From the NCBI GenBank assembly GCA_965219445.1, contig CBDCNQ010000004.1, forward strand, positions 233,023 to 297,022: DNA of 64,000 bases, written 5' to 3'. A program made the position numbers and the translations under genes. Positions within the stretch are counted from its first letter, which is position 1. Every line of letters begins with the position of its first letter. Positions 39,569-52,316 of the stretch are shown one piece after another. The notes under the pieces are model-generated. The model saw only the letters and a program-made list of their open reading frames with translations, searched no databases and was not told where the DNA came from. Origin of the DNA: Longimicrobiales bacterium. GTDB taxonomy: Bacteria > Gemmatimonadota > Gemmatimonadetes > Longimicrobiales > Gaopeijiaceae.

Positions 39569-39593
39569 TCTAGGACTCCTAGGGCATGTACAG

Positions 39594-39645
39594 GATCAGA
39601 CCGAGGTCAACATCCGATGCGCGCCCCGATAGGCGCAAGGAGAAC
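39594..39645 (-). promoter_or_regulatory. Conserved upstream motif, copy 1 (TTGCGC-N18-GATGTT)
   Basis: On the plus strand, gcgcaa is at 39633-39638 and aacatc at 39609-39614. The motif lies 40 nt upstream of the GTG start at 39568. See copies at 47600, 48773 and 52211. Confidence 0.35.
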
Positions 39646-39754
39646 CCCGTCAGACGTCCCTTCATCTTCGAGTCTAGAGCAGCGGCGTTATACGAAACGA
39701 CAGATGCCCTGGTAGGCCTGGCTGGGCCAGGAGCCAAGTGAACAGGCGCCGGGC

Positions 39755-40813
39755 TCAGCGTGCCGTGTAGGTTCGGCTGAACCCGTTGCGGCTGTTCGTG
39801 ACGGTGAACGTGCCGTCCTGGCTGACCGACGCCCGAATCCAATGGCCGTTGCCCTCCGCGGTATCATTCAGGTTTGCGATCATGTCTTCCGCCGTGTTGT
39901 GGGCCGGATTCGGATCGAGCAGCGAACGGTGACCCTGCCAAATCCCTTCGATGCCCGGACTCTTCGCCATCCGGTCGTAGTGCGCCGTTGAGACCTCGCC
40001 GAAACCGGGTGACGTGCCTCCCAGCCCCTTGCGCGGACCGTTGTTCACGACGATGACCTGCGGCTTGATCGCATAGAGGTGCGTTGGCGAGCCCGCGTCG
40101 TCCCAGGCTCCGTGGCGGCTCGTCTGATAGAGCGTGACCTCGCCCACCTTGTTCATGGGACACGACAGCTCGACCTCCATCTCCCAGTTGAGATCCCCGA
40201 GGTCGAGAAAGGTGAACCGGCCGTAGGTGAAGAGCGCCCCGACGCTGCGCTGATTCTCCGGACTGGCCTGCGGTTTGTGCTCGGCCGTCGCGCACAGCGT
40301 GTTGAATCCGCCGTCGTTGACGGGCGTCGTAAGGAGTCGACCGTCCGAGGCGATGACATCGACCTCGACGGCCCCGAACGGGATCTTCTCGCCAGCCTCG
40401 ACGGCCGCTCTCTTGTCTCCGCATACGCTGAGGTACGCGTCGAGCCATTGCCGATTGCTCTCTTCGGTGGTGGTCCCATGGTCGAAGCATTTCTCGATCG
40501 GGATCATCTCGGCGAGCGCTTGAAGCCCGCCCACGTGATCCCGATGGAAGTGCGTGATGACCAGGTGGTCAATCCTGGTCAGGCCAGCCTCTTGGGCTGC
40601 CGCGAAAACGCGTCTCGCGTCGCGGTTATCTTCCGTCGGGTATCCGGTGTCGACGAGCAGAGATTCCCCGCTGGGAGACACAACGAGGGTAGCGGCGCCG
40701 CCTTCGACGTCCACCCAGTAGATGTCGAAGGTCCGTGACTGCGCCGTGGCGGTTACGACGGGGATGCATAACAGCCCAATGAGCCACATCCAACGTACGC
40801 CTGGTTTCGACAT
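39755..40813 (-). CDS. MBL-fold metallo-hydrolase, secreted
   Basis: ORF 39755..40879 trimmed to MSKPGVRWMWLIGLLCIPVVTATAQ. Contains LVITHFHRDHVGG (HxHxDH). Confidence 0.8.
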   Translation of the reverse strand: MSKPGVRWMWLIGLLCIPVVTATAQSRTFDIYWVDVEGGAATLVVSPSGESLLVDTGYPTEDNRDARRVFAAAQEAGLTRIDHLVITHFHRDHVGGLQALAEMIPIEKCFDHGTTTEESNRQWLDAYLSVCGDKRAAVEAGEKIPFGAVEVDVIASDGRLLTTPVNDGGFNTLCATAEHKPQASPENQRSVGALFTYGRFTFLDLGDLNWEMEVELSCPMNKVGEVTLYQTSRHGAWDDAGSPTHLYAIKPQVIVVNNGPRKGLGGTSPGFGEVSTAHYDRMAKSPGIEGIWQGHRSLLDPNPAHNTAEDMIANLNDTAEGNGHWIRASVSQDGTFTVTNSRNGFSRTYTAR

Positions 40814-41142
40814 GCTCAACTCCTTGCGTCGAGGCACCGATTCTACGGAAGGCGGCCGAGAGGGGAGGTCCAGCCTCATCTGGACATCCGGACGGCCACG
40901 GATAGGAAAAAGAAAGGCCCAGTGCCGGATCGGGATAACGTAAGGGGCGGTCCAGACGCGTCAAGCGGGATTCTCTGCCGGCGCCCGATGAAGAACCACT
41001 GACGTCGTGGATACCGTCTTGAGCACCACCGCGAAGCACTGGGCGACAGGCTCTGGGGATTCTCCTTCAGTGAGAGCCTTGCAGCCCAACACGCCTGAGA
41101 CGCATCTTGAGCGCCTGGCACTTTTCTTGAAGGAGATTTCCG

Positions 41143-43245
41143 ATGCAGCAAGTTACAGGTGATCACCGCTACTTAGGATTCCGGTGGCCTCGGTTGGCCT
41201 TGTATCTCGTCGCCACGCTGAGCCTTCTGGTCGCCACACCGCTGACCGGTAAGGCGCAGCAGCCCGGTGGAGCGACGCTTCAGGGCCAGTGGCATTACCT
41301 GGGAGGGGATGCCTACCACCAGAGGTACTCGCCGCTGGACCAGATCCACGCCGGTAATTTCGAGGATCTGGAGGTCGCGTGGATCTGGAGGGGCAACAAC
41401 TTCGATCCCACCGTCGCCCGTGGCAAACCCTTATTCGTGGACGGGGTGCTCTACACCGTGGTGGGCAACCGCCGGACGGTGGTCGCGATCGATGGGGGGA
41501 CGGGGGAGACCCTTTGGGCCTACCGAGAACCGCCCACAACCCGCTGGGAGCGCTCCACGAGGAGGGGCCACGGCAAGGGAGTTTCCTACGGCGAGGTAGA
41601 CGGCCGGGGCGTGATCTTCGTCTCGACGCCCGCCTTCTTCTTGCACGCTCTGGATGCGAAGACAGGCCGGCACCTCGAGAACTGGGGGACACGTGTGCCG
41701 TTGCCCGGCTTTCCCGCCACTGGAGTGATCGACCTCCTGCCCGATATCCTGGACGACTGGGGGCCGTGGGAAGACTATGTGGCCGCCGGCGGGACCTATG
41801 ACGCGGACTGGGGCGCGCCGGCTGAGCTCGGACACATCACGAGCTCCGCACCCCCCATCGTGGTGAATGGGGTAATCGTGGTCGGTAACTCCGCGGAGTC
41901 GGGCAATGAGCAGCTTCGGGTGGAGAACATTCCGGGCGATATTCTGGCGTACGACGCAGGCACGGGCGAGCACCTCTGGAAGTTCCACGTCATCCCGCGG
42001 CCGGGCGAGGTCGGCCACGAGTCGTGGGAGAGCGACGCGTGGGCCTGGACGGGCGACGTCTCCTCCTGGGCCCCCATGTCGGCGGATCCGGACCTGGGCA
42101 TGGTCTACATCGGCACGAACCCTCCCACAATAGACTTCTATGGCGGGTTCCGGCCGGGGGACGGCCTCTTCGGAAACAGCATACTCGCGCTGGACGTGCA
42201 GACGGGTGAGCGGGTGTGGCACTTCCAGATGGTTCGGCACGACATCTGGGACTACGATACTTCCGTTCCGCCCCTGTTGATCGATGTAACGGTGGACGGG
42301 GAGGAGGTTCCCGCGTTGGTGGCCAATGGGAAACACGGAATCACGTTCGTCTTCAACCGGGCCACGGGCGAGCCGGTCTGGCCCATCGAGTACCGCCCGG
42401 TGCCGGCGTCGCGCGTGCCCGGGGACCAGGTCTCGCGGGTCCAGCCCTTCCCCACGAAGCCCGAGCCGATCGGGTTTCTCGGGCTTCCCGAAGAGGAGCT
42501 CATCGATTTCACACCCGAGCTCCGCCGACAGGCGCTCGAGATCCTGGAGGACTTCGACTGGGGCAAGGAACCCTACACACCGTATATCCACGAAGGAAAC
42601 GAGCTGGGAAAGATCGCGACGATCACCTGCCCATCGGGGAGCCCGAACACCGGCGCCGAGCCGTCAGCCGACCCCGAGACGGGATTGGTCTACATCTCCA
42701 TGACCAGGAACTGCCGGTGTCCACAGCTCGCGCGCGGGTTCGAGCTGGATGATCCCGACGACCCGGTCTTTACGGGCACGAACACGACGGCGGAGTTCAT
42801 CACGGGCGAGACGACCACGGAGTGGGCGCCCGGCACGCCGAATATGGGCTGCAGGGGTCCCCAGGGACTTCCTCTCTGGAGGCCTCCCTACAGCAGGATC
42901 GTGGCCATCGACATGAACACTGGCGAGGAGGCATGGTGGGTGCCCAACGGGGATACGCGTGACGTCATTCGGAACCACCCAGCACTTCAAGGACTGGACA
43001 TATCCAACACGGGATCGGGGAGTTTGGCTCCGACCCTGGTCACGAGGACGCTGCTCTTCCACACCGGTGAGCCGTATCTCAACGCTCTCGACAAGCAGAC
43101 CGGAGAGCGCTTGGGCAGGGTCGAGCTTCCAGCTCCTGGTTCGTACGGCTTGATTACCTACGAGCACGAGGGACGGCAGCACATCGTGGTTCAGGTGAAC
43201 AGTGCGGACCTGCGGAACTCGCTCGTAGCGCTCCGGCTGCCGTGA
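41143..43245 (+). CDS. PQQ-dependent dehydrogenase (quinoprotein), paralogue of 30263..32137
   Basis: ORF 41143..43245. Contains WHYLGGDAYHQRYSPLDQI, propeller W-motifs and VRHDIWDYD. Confidence 0.85.
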   Translation: MQQVTGDHRYLGFRWPRLALYLVATLSLLVATPLTGKAQQPGGATLQGQWHYLGGDAYHQRYSPLDQIHAGNFEDLEVAWIWRGNNFDPTVARGKPLFVDGVLYTVVGNRRTVVAIDGGTGETLWAYREPPTTRWERSTRRGHGKGVSYGEVDGRGVIFVSTPAFFLHALDAKTGRHLENWGTRVPLPGFPATGVIDLLPDILDDWGPWEDYVAAGGTYDADWGAPAELGHITSSAPPIVVNGVIVVGNSAESGNEQLRVENIPGDILAYDAGTGEHLWKFHVIPRPGEVGHESWESDAWAWTGDVSSWAPMSADPDLGMVYIGTNPPTIDFYGGFRPGDGLFGNSILALDVQTGERVWHFQMVRHDIWDYDTSVPPLLIDVTVDGEEVPALVANGKHGITFVFNRATGEPVWPIEYRPVPASRVPGDQVSRVQPFPTKPEPIGFLGLPEEELIDFTPELRRQALEILEDFDWGKEPYTPYIHEGNELGKIATITCPSGSPNTGAEPSADPETGLVYISMTRNCRCPQLARGFELDDPDDPVFTGTNTTAEFITGETTTEWAPGTPNMGCRGPQGLPLWRPPYSRIVAIDMNTGEEAWWVPNGDTRDVIRNHPALQGLDISNTGSGSLAPTLVTRTLLFHTGEPYLNALDKQTGERLGRVELPAPGSYGLITYEHEGRQHIVVQVNSADLRNSLVALRLP

Positions 43246-43269
43246 CCAGGGAAAAGTGACGGGGAGCTG

Positions 43270-45009
43270 CTATCGCCGACCCGATCCACGATAACGCCGG
43301 ATCCTCACCTCCAGTGAGTCGGCGAGGGCGGTGTCGCCGCCTCGCTGTGCGAGCCGTAGAGCATCCTGTGCCGCCCCGACGGCTTCGTCGATTTGTCCGA
43401 GCGTCGCGAGCGCGCCGGCGAGCACGTCCAATGCGTAGGGATCCTGTCGGTTCGACATCATGACACCTTGGCGGGCGACTAGCATCGAGGATTGCGCGTC
43501 GCCCTTGGCCGCGAAGATCCGGCTGAGCCCGACCAACGCCCCCACATGGTCCGCCCGGTACTGCAGCGCCTCCTGAAAGTGCCCTGTGGCCGCATCCAGA
43601 TCTCCGGCCTCGACCAGGGATTGGCCTTGGATGAACTCGTTGTACGCCATGTAGGCCATATCCTCGGATACGTGCTTCCATGCCTGCTCTTCGAGCAGCT
43701 GTCGTCGGTCCGCGGAGCTCCGGGGCAGAACCTGAAGCATCAGATCCGCCATCTCGTCCGTGGAGTTCGAGCCATTCACCACGCGCGTCGGAGGACTAGA
43801 CGGATTGCGCGGGTTCGCGGCCGAGTTGTCGAAGGTGTACTCCATTAGAATGGTCGTGCCGGCCGGCAAAGAAATCGGCTCGATGAATCGGTAGTCGTCC
43901 TGCCAATTGAAGTCCCAGTTCGGAATATGGATGAGCGACACCTCGCGGCCCCCGGGAAGGACGGCGGTGGCACGGAGGTCCTTCCCGAGGTAGTGCGCGT
44001 GCGGATACGCACTCAGGACGGCCACCTCGACCGGGAGCGTGAAGCTGTTAGTCACCGAGTAGTCCGACGCCCCGGCCGGAATGTCGATCATCAGGGAACT
44101 GATGACGAGGATCGCCGGCTCCCGGGTCGGTGGCTCGTCAGCGAAGTGGAAATCGACCTCGGCCGTGACCTCCTCCTCCACGCCGGACGTGCGGAAATGC
44201 AACTGCACGACCAGATCGGTCCCGGGTTCGAGGCGCCAAGGCATGCCGTCGAGCGGAGGAAGCCGTGTTATGCCCGGCGTCCATCCGATGAAGTGACCGC
44301 TGGGACGCGCCGCGTTGCTCCGGAGCTGCATGCCGTCGAACCCTGAACCGCCTTTCGCCCGCGCCAGCTCGCGCGACGACGAGGTCGTGTCCACCATCAT
44401 GCGCGCGTGGTGCACCACGTTTCGGCTTCCGGGCCTCAACTCGACGTACTCGATCCAACGCGTCTCGGCGACCGGAATAGGCACGACCAGGTTCCGATAC
44501 ACGTCGAGGCCGCGGGCCGGTACCGTATACGTCGGCAACTGTACAGTCAGATCCGCGGGGCCGGGGTTCCACCCCGTCTCGGCCACTTGGTCGGTGGCAC
44601 GCGAGAGATCGCCGGCGGGCGCTCCTTCTTCAGCCCACTGGCCAAAGAGTCTGATCTCGTCGGACGTCAGTCGGCGCTCACCGTAGAACGTTCCGGGCTC
44701 TGATTCCGGGAGCCAGGGCGGCATGACACGGCGCTCCGTCACATGGGCGATAAGCCCGGCGCGGGAGCGCGCGTCCTCGTACGCCAGGAGGCTGAACGGC
44801 GCAGAACCACCCGGGCGGTGACAACCGACGCACTCGCGTGCGAGAATCGGGGCGATATCCGCGGCGTAGGTCACCGCAGACTGTGCCCCGGCGTTCGGCG
44901 CGCCGACCATCGAGGAGCCCAGCATCGCGGGGACCGCCAGGACAGCGAGTGTTCCAGTCAACCCGGACACGACAAAGGAAGCGTTCAAGGATTCGGTCAT
45001 GGCGGGCAA
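43270..45009 (-). CDS. Secreted CxxCH heme-motif protein with a Cu-monooxygenase-like middle domain and C-terminal TPR repeats
   Basis: ORF 43270..45009. Contains DIAPILARECVGCHRPGGSAPFSLL (CxxCH), His-rich segments (NVVHHARM, SAYPHAHYLG) and a TPR-like C-terminus. The domain names are inferred from memory of the families. Confidence 0.6.
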   Translation of the reverse strand: MPAMTESLNASFVVSGLTGTLAVLAVPAMLGSSMVGAPNAGAQSAVTYAADIAPILARECVGCHRPGGSAPFSLLAYEDARSRAGLIAHVTERRVMPPWLPESEPGTFYGERRLTSDEIRLFGQWAEEGAPAGDLSRATDQVAETGWNPGPADLTVQLPTYTVPARGLDVYRNLVVPIPVAETRWIEYVELRPGSRNVVHHARMMVDTTSSSRELARAKGGSGFDGMQLRSNAARPSGHFIGWTPGITRLPPLDGMPWRLEPGTDLVVQLHFRTSGVEEEVTAEVDFHFADEPPTREPAILVISSLMIDIPAGASDYSVTNSFTLPVEVAVLSAYPHAHYLGKDLRATAVLPGGREVSLIHIPNWDFNWQDDYRFIEPISLPAGTTILMEYTFDNSAANPRNPSSPPTRVVNGSNSTDEMADLMLQVLPRSSADRRQLLEEQAWKHVSEDMAYMAYNEFIQGQSLVEAGDLDAATGHFQEALQYRADHVGALVGLSRIFAAKGDAQSSMLVARQGVMMSNRQDPYALDVLAGALATLGQIDEAVGAAQDALRLAQRGGDTALADSLEVRIRRYRGSGRR

Positions 45010-45088
45010 GATGCGTCAAACGTGTATGGGGCGGCAAGCGCCCACTTCAAGAAGAACCGCTCAGACTATTACGACGCGCCGCTATCGG

Positions 45089-45475
45089 TTAGGCCGATTC
45101 GAGATCCGTCTGCGGGAAATCCTCGCCCACAAACAGCAAGGGCTCACCCGACAGGCGGGCCACAGCGTAGGTCAGACAATCCCCGAAGTTCAGGCCCGCC
45201 GGATCCTGCCCTTTCCCGAACCTTCTGTACGCCTCCACCGCTTCCCGCCAGTGCACACTCCCGAACGAGATCTCTTCGATAGCGAGCTCGTCTAGCAATC
45301 TCTCTAGCAGACCAGGCGCACCGGCGCCGAGGCGGGCGTGGAGCACGATTCCCGCCTCCGCCAGCGTTGGACTCCCGGCCGCTACGACAGGTGCCGAGAG
45401 GATCCGATCAAGAACGTCTTCATAACCGGACTCCTGAAATACGATGGCCAGCAATGCGGATGCATCGACGATCAT
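45089..45475 (-). CDS. vapC: PIN-domain toxin VapC
   Basis: ORF 45089..45475. Starts MIVDASALLAIVFQE, contains NFGDCLTYAVA, and is 128 aa long. Overlaps the vapB stop. Confidence 0.85.
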   Translation of the reverse strand: MIVDASALLAIVFQESGYEDVLDRILSAPVVAAGSPTLAEAGIVLHARLGAGAPGLLERLLDELAIEEISFGSVHWREAVEAYRRFGKGQDPAGLNFGDCLTYAVARLSGEPLLFVGEDFPQTDLESA

Positions 45476-45744
45476 ACGCCGTCGGGACCCAAGCCAAGGA
45501 TGCGCTCTCGCTCCTCGCGGCTGGGGGGGCAGCCGAGTTGATCCGGGGGGACCTGTGACCAGACCTCCCGTGAGAGAAACCTCTGAATTCGGTCAGCCCG
45601 AGCACTGTCGGACATGCGGACCCTGAGTCGTTGATGTCGCTCGCTCAAAGCCTGTCGAACGGCCTCCGTCTTGGACTCACCAGTCAGCGCTGCAACCTCA
45701 GCCGCCAGTCGTTCGACCTCAGGATTCTTGATGTTGAGGGCCAT
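45472..45744 (-). CDS. vapB: VapB-type antitoxin
   Basis: ORF 45472..45744. Starts MALNIKNPEVERLAAEVAALTGESKTEAVRQAL. It is a small protein directly upstream of, and overlapping, vapC. Confidence 0.75.
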   Translation of the reverse strand: MALNIKNPEVERLAAEVAALTGESKTEAVRQALSERHQRLRVRMSDSARADRIQRFLSREVWSQVPPDQLGCPPSREERERILGLGPDGV

Positions 45745-45758
45745 GGTGTGGACCCAAA

Positions 45759-45791
45759 GGTGTAATTATACCGTTATGGTGTAATTATACC
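45759..45791. promoter_or_regulatory. Two direct copies of the near-palindrome GGTGTAATTATACC (candidate VapBC operator)
   Basis: Identical 14-mers at 45759-45772 and 45778-45791, 15-47 nt upstream of the vapB start (45744). Confidence 0.5.
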
Positions 45792-46009
45792 CAACTGAGA
45801 CCGTCTTGACCAGTATTTATAGCTCCACGAAGCAGGCCATCAAGGGTCCTGCTGTGGTGACCTGGGTTTCCGGCTCTTTGGTGTCGGTGGGTTAGGGGGT
45901 AAAAAGGGGGCTATGGGACCTCAAGCGGGACCCCAAAAAACTCGGGTTGCCTGGCGGGAACTCAGTGGAGGGGGGAGGAGCTCTGGCCTCCGGACGCTCA
46001 GGAACGCAG

Positions 46010-46207
46010 CTAAGGGCGGCCGAAGTTCGCCTCGAACCGATCAAAGCGTCCTTCCAGGCGGTCGATTCGCGCGGCGTTCCCTGTGACGCCTTCGGCCACA
46101 GCACGCAGGTCGTGGCTTAGCTGTTCTTGGCCCACCTCGACACGGATCACGCGCCCTTCGAGACGATCCAGCCGACCACCGTGCTCCTCGTAGATCCGGC
46201 CGACCAT
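46010..46207 (-). CDS. Possible small coiled-coil protein
   Basis: ORF 46010..46207 has repeated RLDRLEGR / RIDRLEGRF heptad-like segments. No family recognised. Confidence 0.25.
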   Translation of the reverse strand: MVGRIYEEHGGRLDRLEGRVIRVEVGQEQLSHDLRAVAEGVTGNAARIDRLEGRFDRFEANFGRP

Positions 46208-46318
46208 CTCGTATTTCCGCGTCCTGGAATTGCTGTTGGGTCATCGGTCCCTGAGTGCTCGGAAGGCTCGAGAGCGCAATCTACGCATCGGGGCTGAGCT
46301 GGAACATGTCGAAGGGGA

Positions 46319-47593
46319 TTACCTGGGTCGCAATCCGGCCAGTTCTGCGAGTGCGCCGAGCGTCGTCTGCGCCGCATTGAGGCCGAGCAGGAAATCCTCA
46401 TCGGAGTAGGTAGCGACGAGATCGGTCGGCTGATGCCAATTGGGATTCCATCCCCCTCCGATGTGCATGCCTCGCTCGTTCTCGCGGAGGCTGATCGCGG
46501 GCACGATGTCCATGAACCACCTGGAGTCAGTGTTGGTCATGTGCGGGCCCACGGCGGCCGGGTAGTCCGTGGCGTACCGTTCGTTGGCGTCGCGGAAGAA
46601 GAAGGCGAGCCTCATGGCCTCGTCAGCCAACTCGGCGCTCGACTGGAACTCTATGTTGACGTCGGCCTCGGGCCGCTGGGTCGGGCTGAGGGAGCCGTCT
46701 GCACGAGGCATTCCGTGGTCGAACAACATCATGTCGTGCTGGATCATGCCCAGCCAGGTCGGCTCGGGATAGAACCCTGACCCGGCCGGTTCCTCCCGAC
46801 CTTGAAGGCCCCTGCGCTGCTCGACGTACGCAAGAGCACCGAGCGATCCGCCTTCTTCGTGGTTCCAGAGGACGAAACGGATGGATCGTTCGGTCTCCAC
46901 GTCCGGTCCACTGAAGACCCGCGCGAGCTCCATCACGAGCGCCGTGCCGGACGCGTCGTCGTCGGCCCCTTGGCCGAAGCCACGCCCATCCATGTGGGCA
47001 CCGACGATGTACATCTCATCCGGTCGGGTTGTCCCGACCTTCGTACAGTACACCTGCTCGCGTTGGCCAGGACTGGCGGGTTGAGCGTTGAGCGTGCGGA
47101 GAACTTCGTCCGGTTGCGCTGCAGGATCGTTGTTCGCTGCGGTCGGCCTCGTGACGCCACGCAGTCGGGAGCCGCCCGCGGACATCCTGACTTCGCCACT
47201 CGCGATCACCGGAACGGGCGGAGCCTCCGGACCTGGTTGCGACGGCTGGGCCGGCCTGGGCGGTGGTGGATCGAAGACGAACTGCATGCGCTCGGTCGCA
47301 CAGCCGTAACTGCGCAGCTGCACGTCGATCCAATCGACGGCGGCCTGGTTGCGATCAGTCCCTGCCAGGCGATCGCCGAACTGCGCCAAGCCCTCAATCG
47401 TCGCCTTATAACGCTCCAAATCGAGGCGCCCGACGAGCTCCGCCACTTCAGCCACGGGGGGAGTGAGCCGCGCCGGGGCGGCGGTGCTTGGCAGCCGTTC
47501 CTCGACAGCGGAGCCGGCGCACGCCGTCAGCAGGGTGGCGAATACGACGAGGAAAGTGTTCCTGGACATATGAACGCGGTGAGGGTCAGGCAA
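46319..47593 (-). CDS. M28-family aminopeptidase, lipoprotein
   Basis: ORF 46319..47593. Contains FATLLTACAG, YIVGAHMDGRG, ADDDASGTALVMELARVF and FVLWNHEEGGSLGA. Confidence 0.85.
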   Translation of the reverse strand: MPDPHRVHMSRNTFLVVFATLLTACAGSAVEERLPSTAAPARLTPPVAEVAELVGRLDLERYKATIEGLAQFGDRLAGTDRNQAAVDWIDVQLRSYGCATERMQFVFDPPPPRPAQPSQPGPEAPPVPVIASGEVRMSAGGSRLRGVTRPTAANNDPAAQPDEVLRTLNAQPASPGQREQVYCTKVGTTRPDEMYIVGAHMDGRGFGQGADDDASGTALVMELARVFSGPDVETERSIRFVLWNHEEGGSLGALAYVEQRRGLQGREEPAGSGFYPEPTWLGMIQHDMMLFDHGMPRADGSLSPTQRPEADVNIEFQSSAELADEAMRLAFFFRDANERYATDYPAAVGPHMTNTDSRWFMDIVPAISLRENERGMHIGGGWNPNWHQPTDLVATYSDEDFLLGLNAAQTTLGALAELAGLRPR

Positions 47594-47599
47594 ACCAAA

Positions 47600-47671
47600 A
47601 TGGGCGCACTCCGAGATCAGGCTGCGCTCAACATCCCAGAGCGGGCCGGTGGGCGCAAGCAGAAGGGTTTG
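47600..47671 (-). promoter_or_regulatory. Conserved upstream motif, copy 2 (TTGCGC-N17-GATGTT)
   Basis: On the plus strand, gcgcaa is at 47653-47658 and aacatc at 47630-47635. It lies 36 nt upstream of the peptidase ORF start. Shares the extra block atgggcgcactcc with copy 4. Confidence 0.35.
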
Positions 47672-47723
47672 ATCGGGGGGCTCCCTAGGGTTTCCTTAGT
47701 GCGTCAGGCGACCTTCTTCGGGG

Positions 47724-48758
47724 CTAGTTCTGGACGGCCTCACGTTCAGCCGACCTCGAAGCGCGGAGCCTGGCCTCGAGGGCGCTGCGCTCGGATGCGG
47801 TCAGATCGGCGAGGAAGCGGTCTGCGGCCGCGACCCAGGCATCGCGGTCGACGGCACGCGCGGCTGCGTCCAATGCGGCGAGCATCTCGCCTCGGACCGC
47901 CTGCCGCTCCGCGAACAGTTCCCTGGCAGCTTGCCCCCACCGCGGCGGCACGAGCGCGAACGAGACGTTCCGAATCCGATCGGCGTCCGCCTCATCGGCC
48001 ATCCAGCACGAGCTAGGCGGCTCGATGCCCGCAGTACGGTAAGGTAGCCAGAAGTTGAGGCCGGCAAACGGGCCGTTCGAAGATGGAACGAACCAGACGT
48101 GCAGCATGTGTAGGGTCCGACTTTCGTCGCCGAACTCTGGATGGTCGTGCCATCGGGCGAGGTCGCTTTCGAACGGTATGGGCACTTTGGTTTCCGGCAC
48201 GTCGATGAACACGTACGCCGCGCCGACGAGTTGCTCCCGGCCATCGATGCTGGCGAACATCAAGTGGTCCGGCGCATCGATCCACACACCGTCCAGGCTG
48301 CGTCCCTTGTGCACGTAATGCACGCCCATGCCGGGGATATCGCCCAATGCAGGATTGAACCCGGCGGCACGGGCGGCTTCCGGTGTATCGAGCTCGGACA
48401 TCGCCTGTCGCAGTGCAGCGACTTGCAGGCGATCCGTCTCGGACAATCCGCTCCACGGCGGCGACGAAAGCGTCGTGCAGCTCACGGGCTCACCCGCATG
48501 GATGTGGGCCTGGTCTGGTGTCTGCGAGAGTGCTGAGCGTGGGGCCATGATGTCGGCCACCGGCTGCGGCTCGTCAACGACTGCAGACGTCTTTCCGTCT
48601 GGGGTAGGCCCTGATGCCTCCGGCGGGGTGCAGCCAATGAGAGGAATCATCATCATCATCAGCGCGAACGTTCCGACATCACCGAGGATCGCGTTTCGCC
48701 AGATGAAGAGACGCGAAGGCACTTTGGCCTCGGCCATGCGGGTGACGGGGTCGTACAC
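47724..48758 (-). CDS. Hypothetical secreted protein or lipoprotein
   Basis: ORF 47724..48758 (GTG start). Has a hydrophobic N-terminus with IPLIGC. No family recognised. Confidence 0.5.
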   Translation of the reverse strand: MYDPVTRMAEAKVPSRLFIWRNAILGDVGTFALMMMMIPLIGCTPPEASGPTPDGKTSAVVDEPQPVADIMAPRSALSQTPDQAHIHAGEPVSCTTLSSPPWSGLSETDRLQVAALRQAMSELDTPEAARAAGFNPALGDIPGMGVHYVHKGRSLDGVWIDAPDHLMFASIDGREQLVGAAYVFIDVPETKVPIPFESDLARWHDHPEFGDESRTLHMLHVWFVPSSNGPFAGLNFWLPYRTAGIEPPSSCWMADEADADRIRNVSFALVPPRWGQAARELFAERQAVRGEMLAALDAAARAVDRDAWVAAADRFLADLTASERSALEARLRASRSAEREAVQN

Positions 48759-48772
48759 AGTGATGTCCTCGG

Positions 48773-48840
48773 CATGGGAAGATCAGACCGAGGTCAACAT
48801 CCGAGAGTGGGCCGATAGGCGCAAGCAGAACTTGCTGATC
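48773..48840 (-). promoter_or_regulatory. Conserved upstream motif, copy 3 (TTGCGC-N17-GATGTT)
   Basis: On the plus strand, gcgcaa is at 48819-48824 and aacatc at 48796-48801. It lies 37 nt upstream of the GTG start at 48758. Confidence 0.35.
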
Positions 48841-48912
48841 TAACAAGCCGTGAGGCTCCGTGGTTCACGGGTCCGCGTTTGTGGAGGGCGCACCGTTAAT
48901 GGCCCGGCGGGG

Positions 48913-49311
48913 CTACGACCAGAACTCGTCCCAAGCGTAGAGGTCGAAAAAGTGCTCCCTACCGTCAATAATCCGGCCGTCCTTGAACTCGAAGACGATG
49001 CAGCAGCCAACATCCAGGTGCTTGCCGGCCCTCTCCGCGCGGTTGTGATGAACGCCGATCACGCGGCCGTCATCACTCTTAGACAAGTGCTGCAATGCGG
49101 CCTTGAAGGTCCCTCCCGTCTCCCCCACATACCGGCCGAATTGGGCAAAGGTCGCGTCGCGGCCCTGGTGGTCGCCAGCGAGGGGGCCTCGCCCTGGCGT
49201 GTGCCACGAGGCGCTCTCGTCGAAGATCTCGGTGAGCGTCTTCATGTCGGCCGAGTTGAAGGCCTCGTAACCGCGTCGCACGGTCTCGGCGTTTCTTTCT
49301 GTGTCGTTCAC
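48913..49311 (-). CDS. SnoaL/NTF2-like protein
   Basis: ORF 48913..49311. Contains ETVRRGYEAFNSADMKTLTEIFDESASWHTPG and FEFKDGRIIDGREHF. Confidence 0.75.
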   Translation of the reverse strand: MNDTERNAETVRRGYEAFNSADMKTLTEIFDESASWHTPGRGPLAGDHQGRDATFAQFGRYVGETGGTFKAALQHLSKSDDGRVIGVHHNRAERAGKHLDVGCCIVFEFKDGRIIDGREHFFDLYAWDEFWS

Positions 49312-49366
49312 GATGTAGTTCTCCTTGATCGTGATAGGTGTCTGTGCCTCCTAACGTACCACCGAG

Positions 49367-49404
49367 AAGACGGCCACCTCCGAACGATAGGGCTTGGCCG
49401 TCTT
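49367..49404. terminator. Hairpin AAGACGGCCA...TGGCCGTCTT (repeated sequence; putative terminator)
   Basis: A 10-bp stem between the convergently ending TonB-plug gene and the SnoaL upstream region. Shares cgagaagacggccacctccgaacgat with 52281-52307. Confidence 0.3.
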
Positions 49405-49430
49405 TCTAAGCTCGGCCGGTTCAGCGGCCC

Positions 49431-50456
49431 TCATCGAGTCCAGAGAAGGACGACGCCGCAGGAATTAAGCATGCCGTACTCGAAGGGTATGCCGGCAATT
49501 CCGTGGTAGACCTCCATCGCACTGATCCACTCCGGGGGGTATTGGTCGAGGTCCGGATCAAACATTCGAATCCCATCCACGTACACCGGCAGAACACAGC
49601 CGCCCCCGCGAAAACCGAGGCCCCGCCCGCTCACGGCTACCGTGCCGCCGCGGTTACTTCGCCTCACCCTCACGCCTGGAACACGCCAAATAACGTCGGA
49701 TACGTACATGGGATGAATGGCTTCGAGGTCTTTCTTAGCGAATTGCTTACCCCAGCCACCCTCCATTCTCCTGTAGAATCCGTTCCGTTCGAGAAAGCGC
49801 GAGCGGACCGTCACTTCGATCGCCTCGAGTTCGATCGCCCGGGCAGACATCGAGGCGTTGATTTCGACCGTTCTTCCAGCTTGCACGATCAGTGTGGTCG
49901 TGCGGGAGGCGTAACCCAGGTGCGTGAACCGGACCTCCATCAACCCCGGCTCCAGGTCCCTCAAATCGAAACGGCCACGTCCATCCGTCACTGTGCCAGC
50001 GCGTGTCGGGCTCAGTACCGTGACCTCCACGTCGGAAACCCCACGGTTTCTGCCCTCCTCGGTGACCCGACCGACGATGCGCCCCGGAGCCAGCGGGTCG
50101 TAGGTCGGGTCACGGTCTAGCAGAATCAGTAAATCTTCGTGCCAGGGAACCGGCAATTCGCCCAGAATGATGGCGTCGTAGCCGACCCGCTCTGCCGTTA
50201 GGCGATGTCGCCCAGCCGGGAGACGACCGAGGTCGACCCGACCCAACTCGTCCGAGATCACACGAATGCCGAGTTCGGGCAACTCCACGATCGCCCCACT
50301 GAGCGGAGCTCGGGTCTCCGCATCCGCGACCTGGCCGGACCTCGCGAATCCGTCGTCCGCCAGGCCGACCGACTGATCCATGGCTCGGAGGTTGTCTGCA
50401 AGTGGACACGCCAGAAGGCCCGAAAAGACAATCACGAGAAGGGACGTTCGGTTCAT
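49431..50456 (-). CDS. CarboxypepD_reg-like plus TonB-dependent-receptor plug domain protein (no barrel)
   Basis: ORF 49431..50456. Signal peptide, two beta-sandwich-like repeats ([26 protein letters not shown] and [26 protein letters not shown]), then plug-like VYVDGIRM...EVYHG. Confidence 0.7.
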
Positions 50457-50560
50457 GTTGCCTCCTTCATCGCGACCTTGCGCCCGTGCTTGAGATCATC
50501 GGCCAAGTAGACCGTTGCCATGCCGCCCTCGCCGAGCTCACGCTCGATGGCGTAGCGGAA
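50453..50560 (-). pseudogene. Ser/Thr protein kinase N-terminal remnant (35 codons)
   Basis: Own reading: [35 protein letters not shown]-stop. This is a Gly-rich loop plus a VAxK lysine box, bounded by the upstream gene stop and overlapping the downstream ATG. Confidence 0.6.
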
Positions 50561-52123
50561 TTAATTGCCTATCGACTCGGTCCCTATCAGAGTGCCCTCC
50601 CTGGCTGTTGGCGGGAAGTTCTCCCCGCGCAATTGATTCATCGTCATCCCGTTTGCCCGATCGAGTGCTGCAGCGAATGCGCGGGTGCTGCGCTCCAGAC
50701 CGCTGGCGGGGACAAGCTCTGGCACATCAAGCGACGTGTGGTAGATCACGTGATCGATGATGTGGAAGGACGGTGCGTAATTGCCATTCTTAGGCCCATC
50801 TTCCAGGGCATATACTGACACACCGAACTCGCGCAACGTATTGAAGACCATCTGCTCGAATTCGGGGCTACCGAGCGCGTTCCAACGGAAGGCACCCACG
50901 GCGTTGGTTGGCGTGAGAGCATCGTTATACATGTAGAGCAGGGTCTGCGAAGCATGCTCCATGGTCAACTTCACGGCGACTTTGTCCCAGGGGTACGAAT
51001 CATTGATGCCGACACCCTCACGGCCGCGGGCGACTTCGCCGTGATGATGATCTGAGAATTGAATGAACTTCATCGTGCGTGGGCGTTCCTCAAGAGGCTT
51101 TTGCGCATAGAACCGTGCAATTTCCAGCGCGCTCGCCATTCCCGCCGCGTTGTCCATTGCCGCCTGAAAGTATCCATCGGTGTGCGTCATGACGACGATT
51201 TCCTCGTCAGACATGCCTGGGAGGGTTGCGATTGTGTACTCGGTCGCAAGATCGCGCAGTTCCTCCACTTCAAGCCGGAAGGTGAGTTCGACCCTTTCGC
51301 CTCTATCGAGCCGGTCCCTCAACGCGAAGCCTTCGTCCATGCTCAATGTGAATTGCGGAACCTCCGGCGTGCCGCCCTCGGGTTGAAACTGGCCATTGCC
51401 GGGTACCCCCATCACATTCACCACCATCGCAGCACCCATTTCGACGGCCCTGGTATTAGCATTGAAGAGGCCTGCGCGTCCACTCGCCGAATGGCTACGC
51501 CCTCCAGGGACGAACACGCTATAGACGACGACCGCCTTCCCCTCGACATCTCTACCGATGAAATCGGCCCCCGCGCCGACGCCCACCCAAACCGCCTCCG
51601 CCGTGATGCTTTGAGGCCCAGTGGCCTTTGTGCGAGCAACGGGGAATGCGGTCGCCAGGTGTATCGTGGATCCGTCAGCCGTCTCGTAGCTCGCGGCCCA
51701 ATCCGTCGGTCTCCAATCACGGGGCAGCACATAGGGGAAGTGCTCGACGGTGAGCCCGAGGTCCTCGAACCCGCTCGTCATGTATAGCATGCCTTCGCGG
51801 TCGGCGGTTGTGCCAGGCAAGCGACCCCACCATTTGTGTCCAGCATCACGATAGCGGACGGCGATCTGCGCGAGGTCGACTACGTGCCGTTTCATCCGAG
51901 CACCATCGATGCTGGCGTACTGACTCTGCTCCGAAGTCAGCGGCCAGACCGGGTATTGATCGTCAGCGAAGAGCAGCAGATCGCGGTCTCTTGGCAGCCC
52001 TTCACCGTACGTTTTTTCCACCTTGGGGCCAAGATCGATTTGAGCATGAGAAACAGCAGGACTCGCAAACACCACCCCGAGTGTGGCCAACGAAACGAAA
52101 CCGTAGCTTCGCAATCTCCTCAT
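50561..52123 (-). CDS. M28-family peptidase with PA domain
   Basis: ORF 50561..52165 trimmed to MRRLRSYGFVSLATLGVVFASPAVSHAQ (AGGAGAAG RBS). Contains VVMTHTDGYFQAAMDNAAGMASALEIARFY. Confidence 0.85.
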   Translation of the reverse strand: MRRLRSYGFVSLATLGVVFASPAVSHAQIDLGPKVEKTYGEGLPRDRDLLLFADDQYPVWPLTSEQSQYASIDGARMKRHVVDLAQIAVRYRDAGHKWWGRLPGTTADREGMLYMTSGFEDLGLTVEHFPYVLPRDWRPTDWAASYETADGSTIHLATAFPVARTKATGPQSITAEAVWVGVGAGADFIGRDVEGKAVVVYSVFVPGGRSHSASGRAGLFNANTRAVEMGAAMVVNVMGVPGNGQFQPEGGTPEVPQFTLSMDEGFALRDRLDRGERVELTFRLEVEELRDLATEYTIATLPGMSDEEIVVMTHTDGYFQAAMDNAAGMASALEIARFYAQKPLEERPRTMKFIQFSDHHHGEVARGREGVGINDSYPWDKVAVKLTMEHASQTLLYMYNDALTPTNAVGAFRWNALGSPEFEQMVFNTLREFGVSVYALEDGPKNGNYAPSFHIIDHVIYHTSLDVPELVPASGLERSTRAFAAALDRANGMTMNQLRGENFPPTAREGTLIGTESIGN

Positions 52124-52210
52124 CTTGCTTCTCCTGGTGACGTTTAGGTCTATTCTCCAAGACAATGTGCCAAACTACCCAGCCTACCCACACCGGAGAC
52201 GGCATCGGAC

Positions 52211-52270
52211 ATGGGCGCACTCCTGCCGCTCAACATCCGAGAGTGGGGCGGTAGGCGCAAGCAGAGACTT
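52211..52270 (-). promoter_or_regulatory. Conserved upstream motif, copy 4 (TTGCGC-N17-GATGTT)
   Basis: On the plus strand, gcgcaa is at 52255-52260 and aacatc at 52232-52237. It is upstream of the M28/PA peptidase gene. Confidence 0.35.
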
Positions 52271-52285
52271 GTCCCGAACGAGAAG

Positions 52286-52316
52286 ACGGCCACCTCCGAA
52301 CGATGGGGGTGGCCGT
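52286..52316. terminator. Hairpin ACGGCCAC...GTGGCCGT (repeat of the 49367 hairpin family)
   Basis: An 8-bp stem followed by TTTGTG on the plus strand. It lies between the OMP pseudogene end (52354) and motif copy 4. Confidence 0.3.

Follow-up and report, generated by a model that had tools for sequence, protein, structure and literature searches.

Putative mobile promoters (PMPs) have been described as sequences with at least 80% identity over at least 50 nt that are located upstream of unrelated genes in one genome (Matus-Garcia, Nijveen and van Passel 2012; PMC3575422). Promoters are also borne by miniature repeats, i.e. the Correia elements of Neisseria, ERIC and REPIN (PMC3575422). In this work we analyzed a 64,000-nt stretch of DNA (the window) that belongs to contig C4 of a marine Gemmatimonadota metagenome-assembled genome (MAG; 4.56 Mb, 63% G+C, five contigs), and in particular a short module, named here class 1, in which the hexamers TTGCGC and GATGTT are separated by 17-18 nt and of which the window carries four copies. 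From this analysis we propose that the class-1 site is probably a promoter cassette of the sigma-70-family type, derived from a family of Ser/Thr kinase genes and reused before other genes, and that together with a second family of sites, class 2, it would represent a promoter type restricted to one genus.

Class 1 is found with at least 80% identity over at least 50 nt before genes that are not paralogs, and thus falls within the description of a PMP. As reported for PMPs, it is sometimes present across taxa, it is not associated with a known transposition machinery, and it may extend into the coding region (PMC3575422). It differs from them in that its source, the PD40 Ser/Thr kinase family, can be identified and has left relics that move with the copies, and in its high copy number, given that approximately 27 class-1 and 28 class-2 sites are present per genome; in addition, class 1 is nearer to the start codon than the −150 to −50 region in which PMPs were searched (PMC3575422), and its hosts, uncultured bacteria represented by MAGs, were outside the PMP survey. 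With Correia, ERIC and REPIN elements it shares the character of a short, dispersed, intergenic repeat that could supply promoters to its neighbours; in contrast to them, it shows neither terminal inverted repeats nor a palindrome nor target duplications, it keeps a fixed orientation relative to the next gene, and it ends at varied 3' positions. We regard class 1 as an instance of promoter reuse specific to one lineage; it would be neither a new kind of element nor the sign of a new mechanism. A limited literature search turned up nothing on the promoters of uncultured marine Gemmatimonadota.

The class-1 module consists of the sequence cTTGCGCc, a spacer of 17-18 nt, the sequence gGATGTTGa, five variable nucleotides and the block GTCTGATCC. 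In the window, the pattern TTGCGC-N16-19-GATGTT matches four times, always on the minus strand, as the original prediction for this DNA had stated with the same 17-18-nt spacing of the boxes; dinucleotide shuffles gave a mean of 0.06 matches and none of 100 reached four. When the copies of the genome are aligned, the common sequence is TTCTGC-TTGCGCC-TACCGGCCCRCTCTCG-GATGTTGA, followed by the five variable nucleotides and GTCTGATCC, and many copies run on as CCGGAGTGCGCCC-ATG-TCC-GAT-CC..., that is, into the start of a kinase open reading frame (ORF). The genome-wide search proposed in the original prediction was carried out with the loose pattern TTGCGC-N15-20-GATGTT and returned 22 matches, 21 of them the true element and one a chance match; a hidden Markov model search (nhmmer) of the genome found 27 copies at E < 0.01. 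The spacers had been considered diverged, but they share the genome-wide consensus CTACCGGCCCRCTCTCG with approximately 8% differences, and the sites, which had been taken as independent promoters, are homologous copies of a single module of 40-190 nt that corresponds to the 5' region of the kinase family. Similarity to a long reference copy begins no more than 10 nt upstream of TTGCGC in approximately 75 of 115 copies, and it ends at +30 or +44 in approximately 40 copies; other 3' boundaries are located at 57-70, and at 89-142 inside the kinase codons. The common core, which in about two thirds of the copies spans approximately −10 to +30/+44 (with TTGCGC as the reference), has the size of a promoter, and a module of approximately 55-60 nt (approximately −10 to +44) is more than 85% identical before the genes for an F420H2_quin_red-like protein, two M28 peptidases, the hypothetical protein hyp344, ABM-like proteins, lipoproteins and other proteins. 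About a quarter of the class-1 copies are preceded by a non-coding block of approximately 115 nt, GATAACGGCCCTCTAAGCCACGAGGACGCTCCAGCC...CCGAATAAACCCCGAAGACGCTYAGAACGCGATTCTGGGCGTCTGACGGGC (for example at L055:3870-3989), and through internal deletions the 5' tip of this block can come to adjoin the core directly, copy 3 of the window being an example. In variants with a spacer of 18-19 nt and a different 3' half, both boxes are kept.

The source of the module is a family of Ser/Thr kinases with a PD40 propeller (Pkinase + PD40), whose protein sequence starts with MSDPVARLNAALEGRY. Given that the aligned copies run from GTCTGATCC into the kinase ORF, GGAGTGCGCCCAT represents the Shine-Dalgarno (SD) sequence and the start codon of the kinase. 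Among 118 unique copies, 14 are located before a full kinase domain, 25 before N-terminal fragments of 19-148 codons and 19 before a relic of the start only, while 53 show no relic; seven copies could not be scored, five because they run off the end of a contig and two because the flank is too short. The relics carried by the copies comprise the SD, the ATG and 5-168 codons of the kinase. The junctions differ from one copy to the next, and some are in-frame fusions, for example MSDPIIRLNAALSGR joined to the signal peptide of a lipoprotein. Around 25 kinase fragments are present in the genome, promoterless internal ones among them. From these observations we propose that a large family of paralogous Ser/Thr kinases in one marine Gemmatimonadota genus would have the cassette as its native promoter and leader, and that rearrangements at the kinase 5' ends (insertions, deletions, fusions) would have repeatedly left the cassette before other genes. 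Its spread is read as capture by rearrangement and not as transposition, because terminal repeats and target duplications are absent and the 3' ends are heterogeneous. Besides the kinases, which include cyclase-kinase-PD40 fusions, the genes downstream encode mostly predicted secreted proteins or lipoproteins, so that what had been suggested from the window alone agrees with the genes served throughout the genome and the genus; these include M28 peptidases, pyrroloquinoline quinone (PQQ) dehydrogenases, leucine-rich repeat (LRR) and NHL repeat proteins, a 3-keto-disaccharide hydrolase and SurE.

In relatives, the genes that follow the cassette at the loci L017, L024, L045 and L082 include those for LRR and NHL repeat proteins and for a fusion of a guanylate-cyclase domain with Pkinase and PD40. 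Eukaryote-like repeat proteins of the LRR/NHL kind are often reported from host-associated marine bacteria. In the genome of the window, one and the same 423-aa transposase ORF cuts short, from the opposite strand, two class-1 kinases (C2:619324 and C4:1219910, given as contig and position), and the copies at these loci are the only ones with a GATCTT variant of the −10 box.

The motif had originally been interpreted as a promoter of the −35/−10 type. This interpretation is favoured by hexamers that are less variable than the spacer, by the 17-18-nt spacing, and by the co-orientation with the next gene and the closeness to it; the independence of the sites, also part of the argument, did not stand. 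The variability of the hexamers was evaluated without circularity by searching the genome with the spacer alone, which recovered 21 true copies. TTGCGC is present in 20 of these and GATGTT in 18; the differences amount to 5 in 252 hexamer positions (2.0%) versus 30 in 357 spacer positions (8.4%; Fisher p = 6e-4), and four of the five hexamer changes are in one truncated copy or in two kinase genes disrupted by an insertion sequence (IS). Upstream of kinase genes in G014, a sister genus, the boxes recur as TTGCCC-N17-GATGTTGA, where the spacer is unrelated and a leader follows, and as TTGCCT-N17-GATGTTG-6 nt-ATG.

The next gene is co-oriented in 88 and convergent in 10 (mostly truncated copies) of 117 unique copies from this genome and its relatives in the genus (binomial p = 1e-16 for copies that are related and not independent); 13 were scored as inside genes and six could not be scored. 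The scores inside genes are largely an artefact of a crude choice of start codons, as was checked for the full-length kinase at C4:971338, and the core and the start codon are most commonly 26 nt apart. A motif present in both orientations and inside genes, as expected for repetitive extragenic palindromic (REP) sequences or miniature inverted-repeat transposable elements (MITEs), had been named as the pattern that would speak against a promoter; what we observed is a strong co-orientation with the next gene. Furthermore, at orthologous loci with a non-kinase gene downstream the core is preserved between decaying flanks, namely before the ABM-like gene (three genomes) and before a small membrane protein gene (two genomes).

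According to the promoter reading, cTTGCGCc would be the −35 box and gGATGTTGa the −10 box, separated by a spacer of 17 nt (sometimes 18) and followed by a variable discriminator of 5 nt. RNA polymerase would start approximately 7 nt past GATGTT, at the A or G just before GTCTGATCC, which in consequence would be a conserved first-transcribed block, and the start site would give a leader of 20-25 nt with a GGAG ribosome-binding site; we infer both the promoter activity and this start position from the sequence comparison. The cassette presumably now drives the captured genes, which encode mostly secreted or repeat proteins.

The second family, class 2, has the form cTTGC[CA]G-N17-GCATnTTGt followed by 5 nt and the ATG, with no SD. 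Most full-length kinases of the genome lack class 1 and have class 2 instead, as cTTGC[CA]G-N17-GCAT[n]TTG[TA]-CCGCC-ATG: in 10 of the 12 kinases listed without class 1, the class-2 box ends 7 nt before the ATG and there is no SD, and in the remaining two the ATG overlaps the stop codon of another kinase gene directly upstream. A search of the genome with the generalised pattern CTTGC-N18-20-[GC]ATNTTG[AT] gave 48 matches, versus three for the reversed control; 19 of the 48 correspond to class 1, and the others are all, or nearly all, class 2 or its variants. Class 2 was found in all 11 genomes of the genus, with highly variable spacers, and all controls gave 0. In this genome the canonical TANNNT peaks 6 nt before the start codons and NATNTT at exactly 7 nt, therefore class 2 is at the position expected for the −10 box of a leaderless mRNA. 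Promoters of leaderless mRNAs are known from Actinobacteria and Deinococcus. Class 2 resembles them in the −10-like box that ends 7 nt before the ATG and in the lack of an SD, whereas class 1 has a leader with GGAG 7 nt before the ATG; the boxes described here differ from that type in the −10 sequence, [GC]ATnTT and not TAnnnT, and in the conserved −35 (cTTGC). The class-2 boxes of the window have the general form cTTGC[CA]G-N17-GCATCTTG. A leaderless geometry is seen in class 2, including the minus-strand site of the window (Table 1), and not in the four class-1 copies, which have a leader of at least 36 nt with GGAG.

The core, allowing up to two mismatches, is present in 10 of the 11 genomes of the genus with 2-26 copies each, and the reversed control gave 0 everywhere; in other genera, a single match with two mismatches was found in one of the 29 genomes searched. 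An exact scan of one genome per species (185,579 species) gave 76 stretches with matches, nearly all of them in marine MAGs of Gemmatimonadota type, labelled Gemmatimonadota, Gemmatimonadetes, Longimicrobiales or Gemmatimonadales; the exceptions are a few short contigs binned elsewhere and one contig of 2.2 Mb labelled Acidobacteriota. Enrichment of the generalised pattern is limited to this genus, apart from a weak excess in two others, G014 and G022. The idea of a lineage-specific motif is thus supported, since it is confined essentially to one genus. The contig labelled Acidobacteriota (L052, CAXWPH010000015.1) carries a perfect class-1 module, a partial upstream block and a kinase fragment of 71 codons, and represents either an inter-phylum transfer or a mislabelled or chimeric contig. 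A 7.2-kb segment of this genome with a class-1 copy (C5:1199748-1206907) is 99.8% identical to L036 (OZ250165.1); elsewhere, the sampled loci of the same two genomes are at most 87% identical or cannot be aligned, except for a 1.46-kb repeat at 98%, probably an IS, which suggests a recent horizontal transfer of the segment within the genus. As a reference for these values, the orthologs of the probable primary sigma factor are 95-99% identical in the genus, one shared pseudogene region 88% and the peptidases approximately 57%; given the identity of the sigma factor and of the pseudogene region, the conservation of the spacer needs no special constraint.

Several observations weigh against the promoter reading. 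The boxes share with TTGACA/TATAAT the TTG of the −35 and A2, T3 and T6 of the −10, that is, just 6 of 12 positions, a generic sigma-70 scan does not call the class-1 boxes, and the housekeeping promoters of the genome are canonical (TTGACA-N17-TATTCT for rRNA, TAnnnT for the tRNAs). The generalised box pattern finds essentially only the two repeat families, and non-homologous promoters of the type are scarce in the genome. Conservation of the spacer still amounts to 92%, so that the contrast between hexamers and spacer could in part reflect young copies; likewise, the 99.8% identity of the 7.2-kb segment between divergent genomes implies that part of the similarity across species comes from transfer and not from selection. 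The nearest homologues of the two M28 peptidases of the window in other genomes of the genus (approximately 54-62% identity, orthology uncertain) are without the element, and their loci have no common neighbours within flanks of approximately 1.5 kb, except for a PQQ dehydrogenase beside one M28PA homologue (L105). Regarding the sigma factor, the motif was found upstream of none of the 15 sigma-70-family genes of the genome, and the three short RpoD-like paralogs are conserved in the whole order while the motif is restricted to the genus, so that the phylogenetic profile singles none of them out.

Since these boxes depart from the housekeeping consensus, their use probably requires an activator or a sigma factor other than the primary one, and a regulon-specific sigma factor is plausible. 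The RpoD-like paralogs (L127, C2:788445-789296; L128, C5:170774-171673; L129, C5:138058-138969) have 283, 299 and 303 aa, respectively, and all are under the NCBIfam equivalog cut-offs; the one of 303 aa, which is 95-99% identical in the genus, is probably the primary sigma factor. Class 1 resembles the regulons of alternative sigma factors (group 2/3 or extracytoplasmic function) in its highly invariant non-consensus boxes, its fixed spacing and a defined gene set with many signalling and secreted proteins; it differs from them in that no autoregulated sigma gene was found, and no sigma paralog shows the genus-restricted range of the motif. It is conceivable, and in our opinion rather doubtful, that both box families (approximately 40-50 sites per genome) are the read-out of a dedicated sigma factor or activator, with the kinase 5' region acting as a landing pad for newly arrived genes. 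The regulon of such a factor may include the entire expanded family of PD40 Ser/Thr kinases, secreted peptidases, PQQ dehydrogenases and LRR/NHL/tetratricopeptide repeat (TPR) proteins of a marine, possibly host-associated genus.

Other promoter classes were also considered. The consensus of extracytoplasmic function (ECF) sigma factors includes AAC at −35 and CGT(C) at −10, and that of sigma-54 is GG-N10-GC at −24/−12. In the aligned copies there is no AAC/CGT pair at 16-17 nt, and GG-N10-GC is present only in copies that keep the ACGGGC of the upstream block, being absent from copies 2-4 of the window. No convincing match was found to the consensus sequences of sigma-28 and sigma-32, and the resemblance to the −33/−7 promoters of the Bacteroidetes type (TTTG-N19-21-TAnnTTTG) is only partial. 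An ECF-type sigma gene (C5:1136255-1136785), whose region-4 part is apparently frameshifted, is located directly upstream of a class-1 kinase with an 18-nt spacer, and this layout recalls the ECF sigma/Ser-Thr-kinase pairs.

The copies could also be inert debris, i.e. young remains of kinase genes that have decayed in a genome rich in pseudogenes, without effect on the genes that at present follow them. In agreement with this, just 14 of the 118 copies precede a full kinase domain, and kinase relics are carried by 44 of the 97 copies that do not; the numerous kinase fragments of the genome, the abundance of truncated genes in the window, the truncated half-copies that adjoin convergent genes, and the closest M28 homologues devoid of the element point in the same direction. 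Nevertheless, variability is four times lower in the hexamers than in the spacer, with most hexamer changes located in dead loci, two or three species retain copies before non-kinase genes at orthologous loci where the flanks are decaying, 53 copies keep only the promoter-sized core, and the orientation bias is strong; even as debris, the element would still be a promoter at its origin. We consider it unlikely that inert leftovers account for the family as a whole, since the hexamer/spacer contrast and the orthologous retention would be left unexplained, and possible that they account for individual copies.

Less probable still, the core could be the operator of a DNA-binding regulator or a signal in the RNA of the 5' untranslated region, with transcription coming from further upstream, for instance from the 115-nt block. 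The conservation of the whole 31-nt core and of GTCTGATCC goes beyond the hexamers, the match to the sigma-70 consensus is poor, about a quarter of the copies have the conserved upstream block, and in long-leader variants a CCTC...GAGG hairpin could mask the SD. But about two thirds of the copies keep the core without that block, the core has neither dyad nor direct-repeat symmetry, and because the class-2 box abuts the ATG there is room only for a promoter. Neither was a structured RNA detected: the fold of 18 long copies was weak (RNAalifold −7.4 kcal/mol over 229 columns), none of the 14 predicted pairs showed a compensatory change, and the AGACGC...GCGTCT hairpin of the upstream block, suggestive by eye, was not picked up in this fold; the window has no Rfam match at the gathering score, and three loci gave none even at E <= 1. 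The explanation with the least probability in our analysis, a very improbable one, is a selfish miniature mobile element (MITE, REP or Correia-like) that transposes by itself and has an outward-facing promoter. There are dozens of clustered copies per genome, many with a sharp 5' boundary at approximately −10, IS elements are abundant nearby, a segment bearing a copy has apparently moved horizontally, and in long copies only, a 6-nt inverted match (GATCAG/CTGATC) connects the tip of the long form with the +5 block. Consistent terminal inverted repeats and target-site duplications are lacking, however, the 3' boundaries are heterogeneous and the orientation bias towards the next gene is unlike that of REP or MITE sequences; moreover, relics of kinase coding sequence, variable in length, accompany nearly half of the non-kinase copies, which argues for rearrangement at kinase genes and not for the transposition of a fixed unit.

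As a promoter cassette, class 1 would be an unusually legible example of promoter reuse, in which the donor family is known and the relics of the SD, the start codon and the first codons mark the captures. It provides a concrete and testable type of promoter, for which start sites are predicted, and a sister type without a leader; for the annotation of these genomes, it helps to identify start codons, relic upstream ORFs, kinase pseudogene fragments and sets of genes that are likely co-regulated.

The features of the window are shown in Table 1. The four spacer sequences and the additional block GGAGTGCGCCCAT in copies 2 and 4 were re-read as originally listed. The 36-40 nt said to separate the GATGTT box from the ORF start in three copies apply to copies 1 and 3; for copy 2 the value is obtained only with a TTG codon, and a more plausible ATG is further downstream. 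Copy 1 has CTCC in place of CTGC before TTGCGC and belongs to a recurrent sub-type, with an 18-nt spacer ending in ...CAT(A/C)G, that is present in several genomes of the genus. In copy 2 the SD/start relic is located at 47612-47600 and its ATG has decayed to ATT, whereas in copy 4 (52223-52211) it runs on as a 20-codon ORF, MSDAVSGVGRLGSLAHCLGE and a stop codon (52212-52150), placed between the box and the start of the M28 gene. Copy 3 has AGATCAGCAAG, the 5' tip of the long upstream block, fused straight to TTCTGC; its leader is of the hairpin type (CCTCGG...CCGAGG), and the gene that follows begins with VYDPVTRMAEAK, a fused relic of the kinase N-terminus.

Table 1. Class-1 copies, class-2 boxes and kinase fragment of the window; start-codon distances are counted from the final T of GATGTT.
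Feature	Position	Strand	Core	Adjoining sequence	Downstream gene (distance)
Copy 1, class-1 module, 18-nt-spacer sub-type	39593..39682	minus	39638-39609	GA, then predicted start-of-transcript block CCTCGGTCTGATCC; upstream-block remnant at 39641-39682(-)	F420H2_quin_red-like, 39568-39152 (GTG 39568, 40 nt)
Class-2 box CTTGCAG-N17-GCATCTTGA	41078..41110	plus		32-nt leader with GAAGGAG	PQQ dehydrogenase, 41143-43245
Class-2 box CTTGCCG-N17-GCATCTTGC-CCGCC-ATG	44998..45038	minus		leaderless geometry	TPR protein, ATG 45000, end 43270
Copy 2, class-1 module	47597..47666	minus	47658-47630	GAGCGCAGCCTGATCTC, then relic GGAGTGCGCCCAT	M28 peptidase, 47593/47569-46319 (TTG 47593, 36 nt; ATG 47569, 60 nt)
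Copy 3, class-1 module	48759..48842	minus	48824-48796		344-aa protein, no Pfam match, 48758-47724 (GTG 48758, 37 nt)
Promoterless kinase fragment, codons approximately 15-47	50464..50558	minus		M28 stop codon directly before; SD/ATG of truncated TonB-receptor gene directly after	
Copy 4, class-1 module	52150..52266	minus	52260-52232	kinase SD + ATG relic	M28 peptidase, 52123-50561 (ATG 52123, 108 nt)

The TonB-receptor gene (50456-49431, minus strand) is truncated after the Plug domain and is coupled to the promoterless kinase fragment via ...ATGA. In a sister species the order is a terminator-like repeat, a class-1 module, kinase codons 1-47 and the TonB-receptor fragment. The window keeps the same downstream junction (50558-49431), and codons 9-14 have been replaced by the M28 gene, which is now placed after copy 4 and kinase codons 1-8.

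A separate repeat, ACGGCCACCCCCATCGTTCGGAGGTGGCCGTCTTCTCGTT, is present in the window at 52288-52314 and 49372-49399, both on the minus strand, and in 17 copies genome-wide. It is terminator-like, with a GC-rich stem of 7 bp followed by a T-rich tail, its identity in other genomes of the genus is 94-98%, and one of its copies is located 14 nt upstream of class-1 copy 4.

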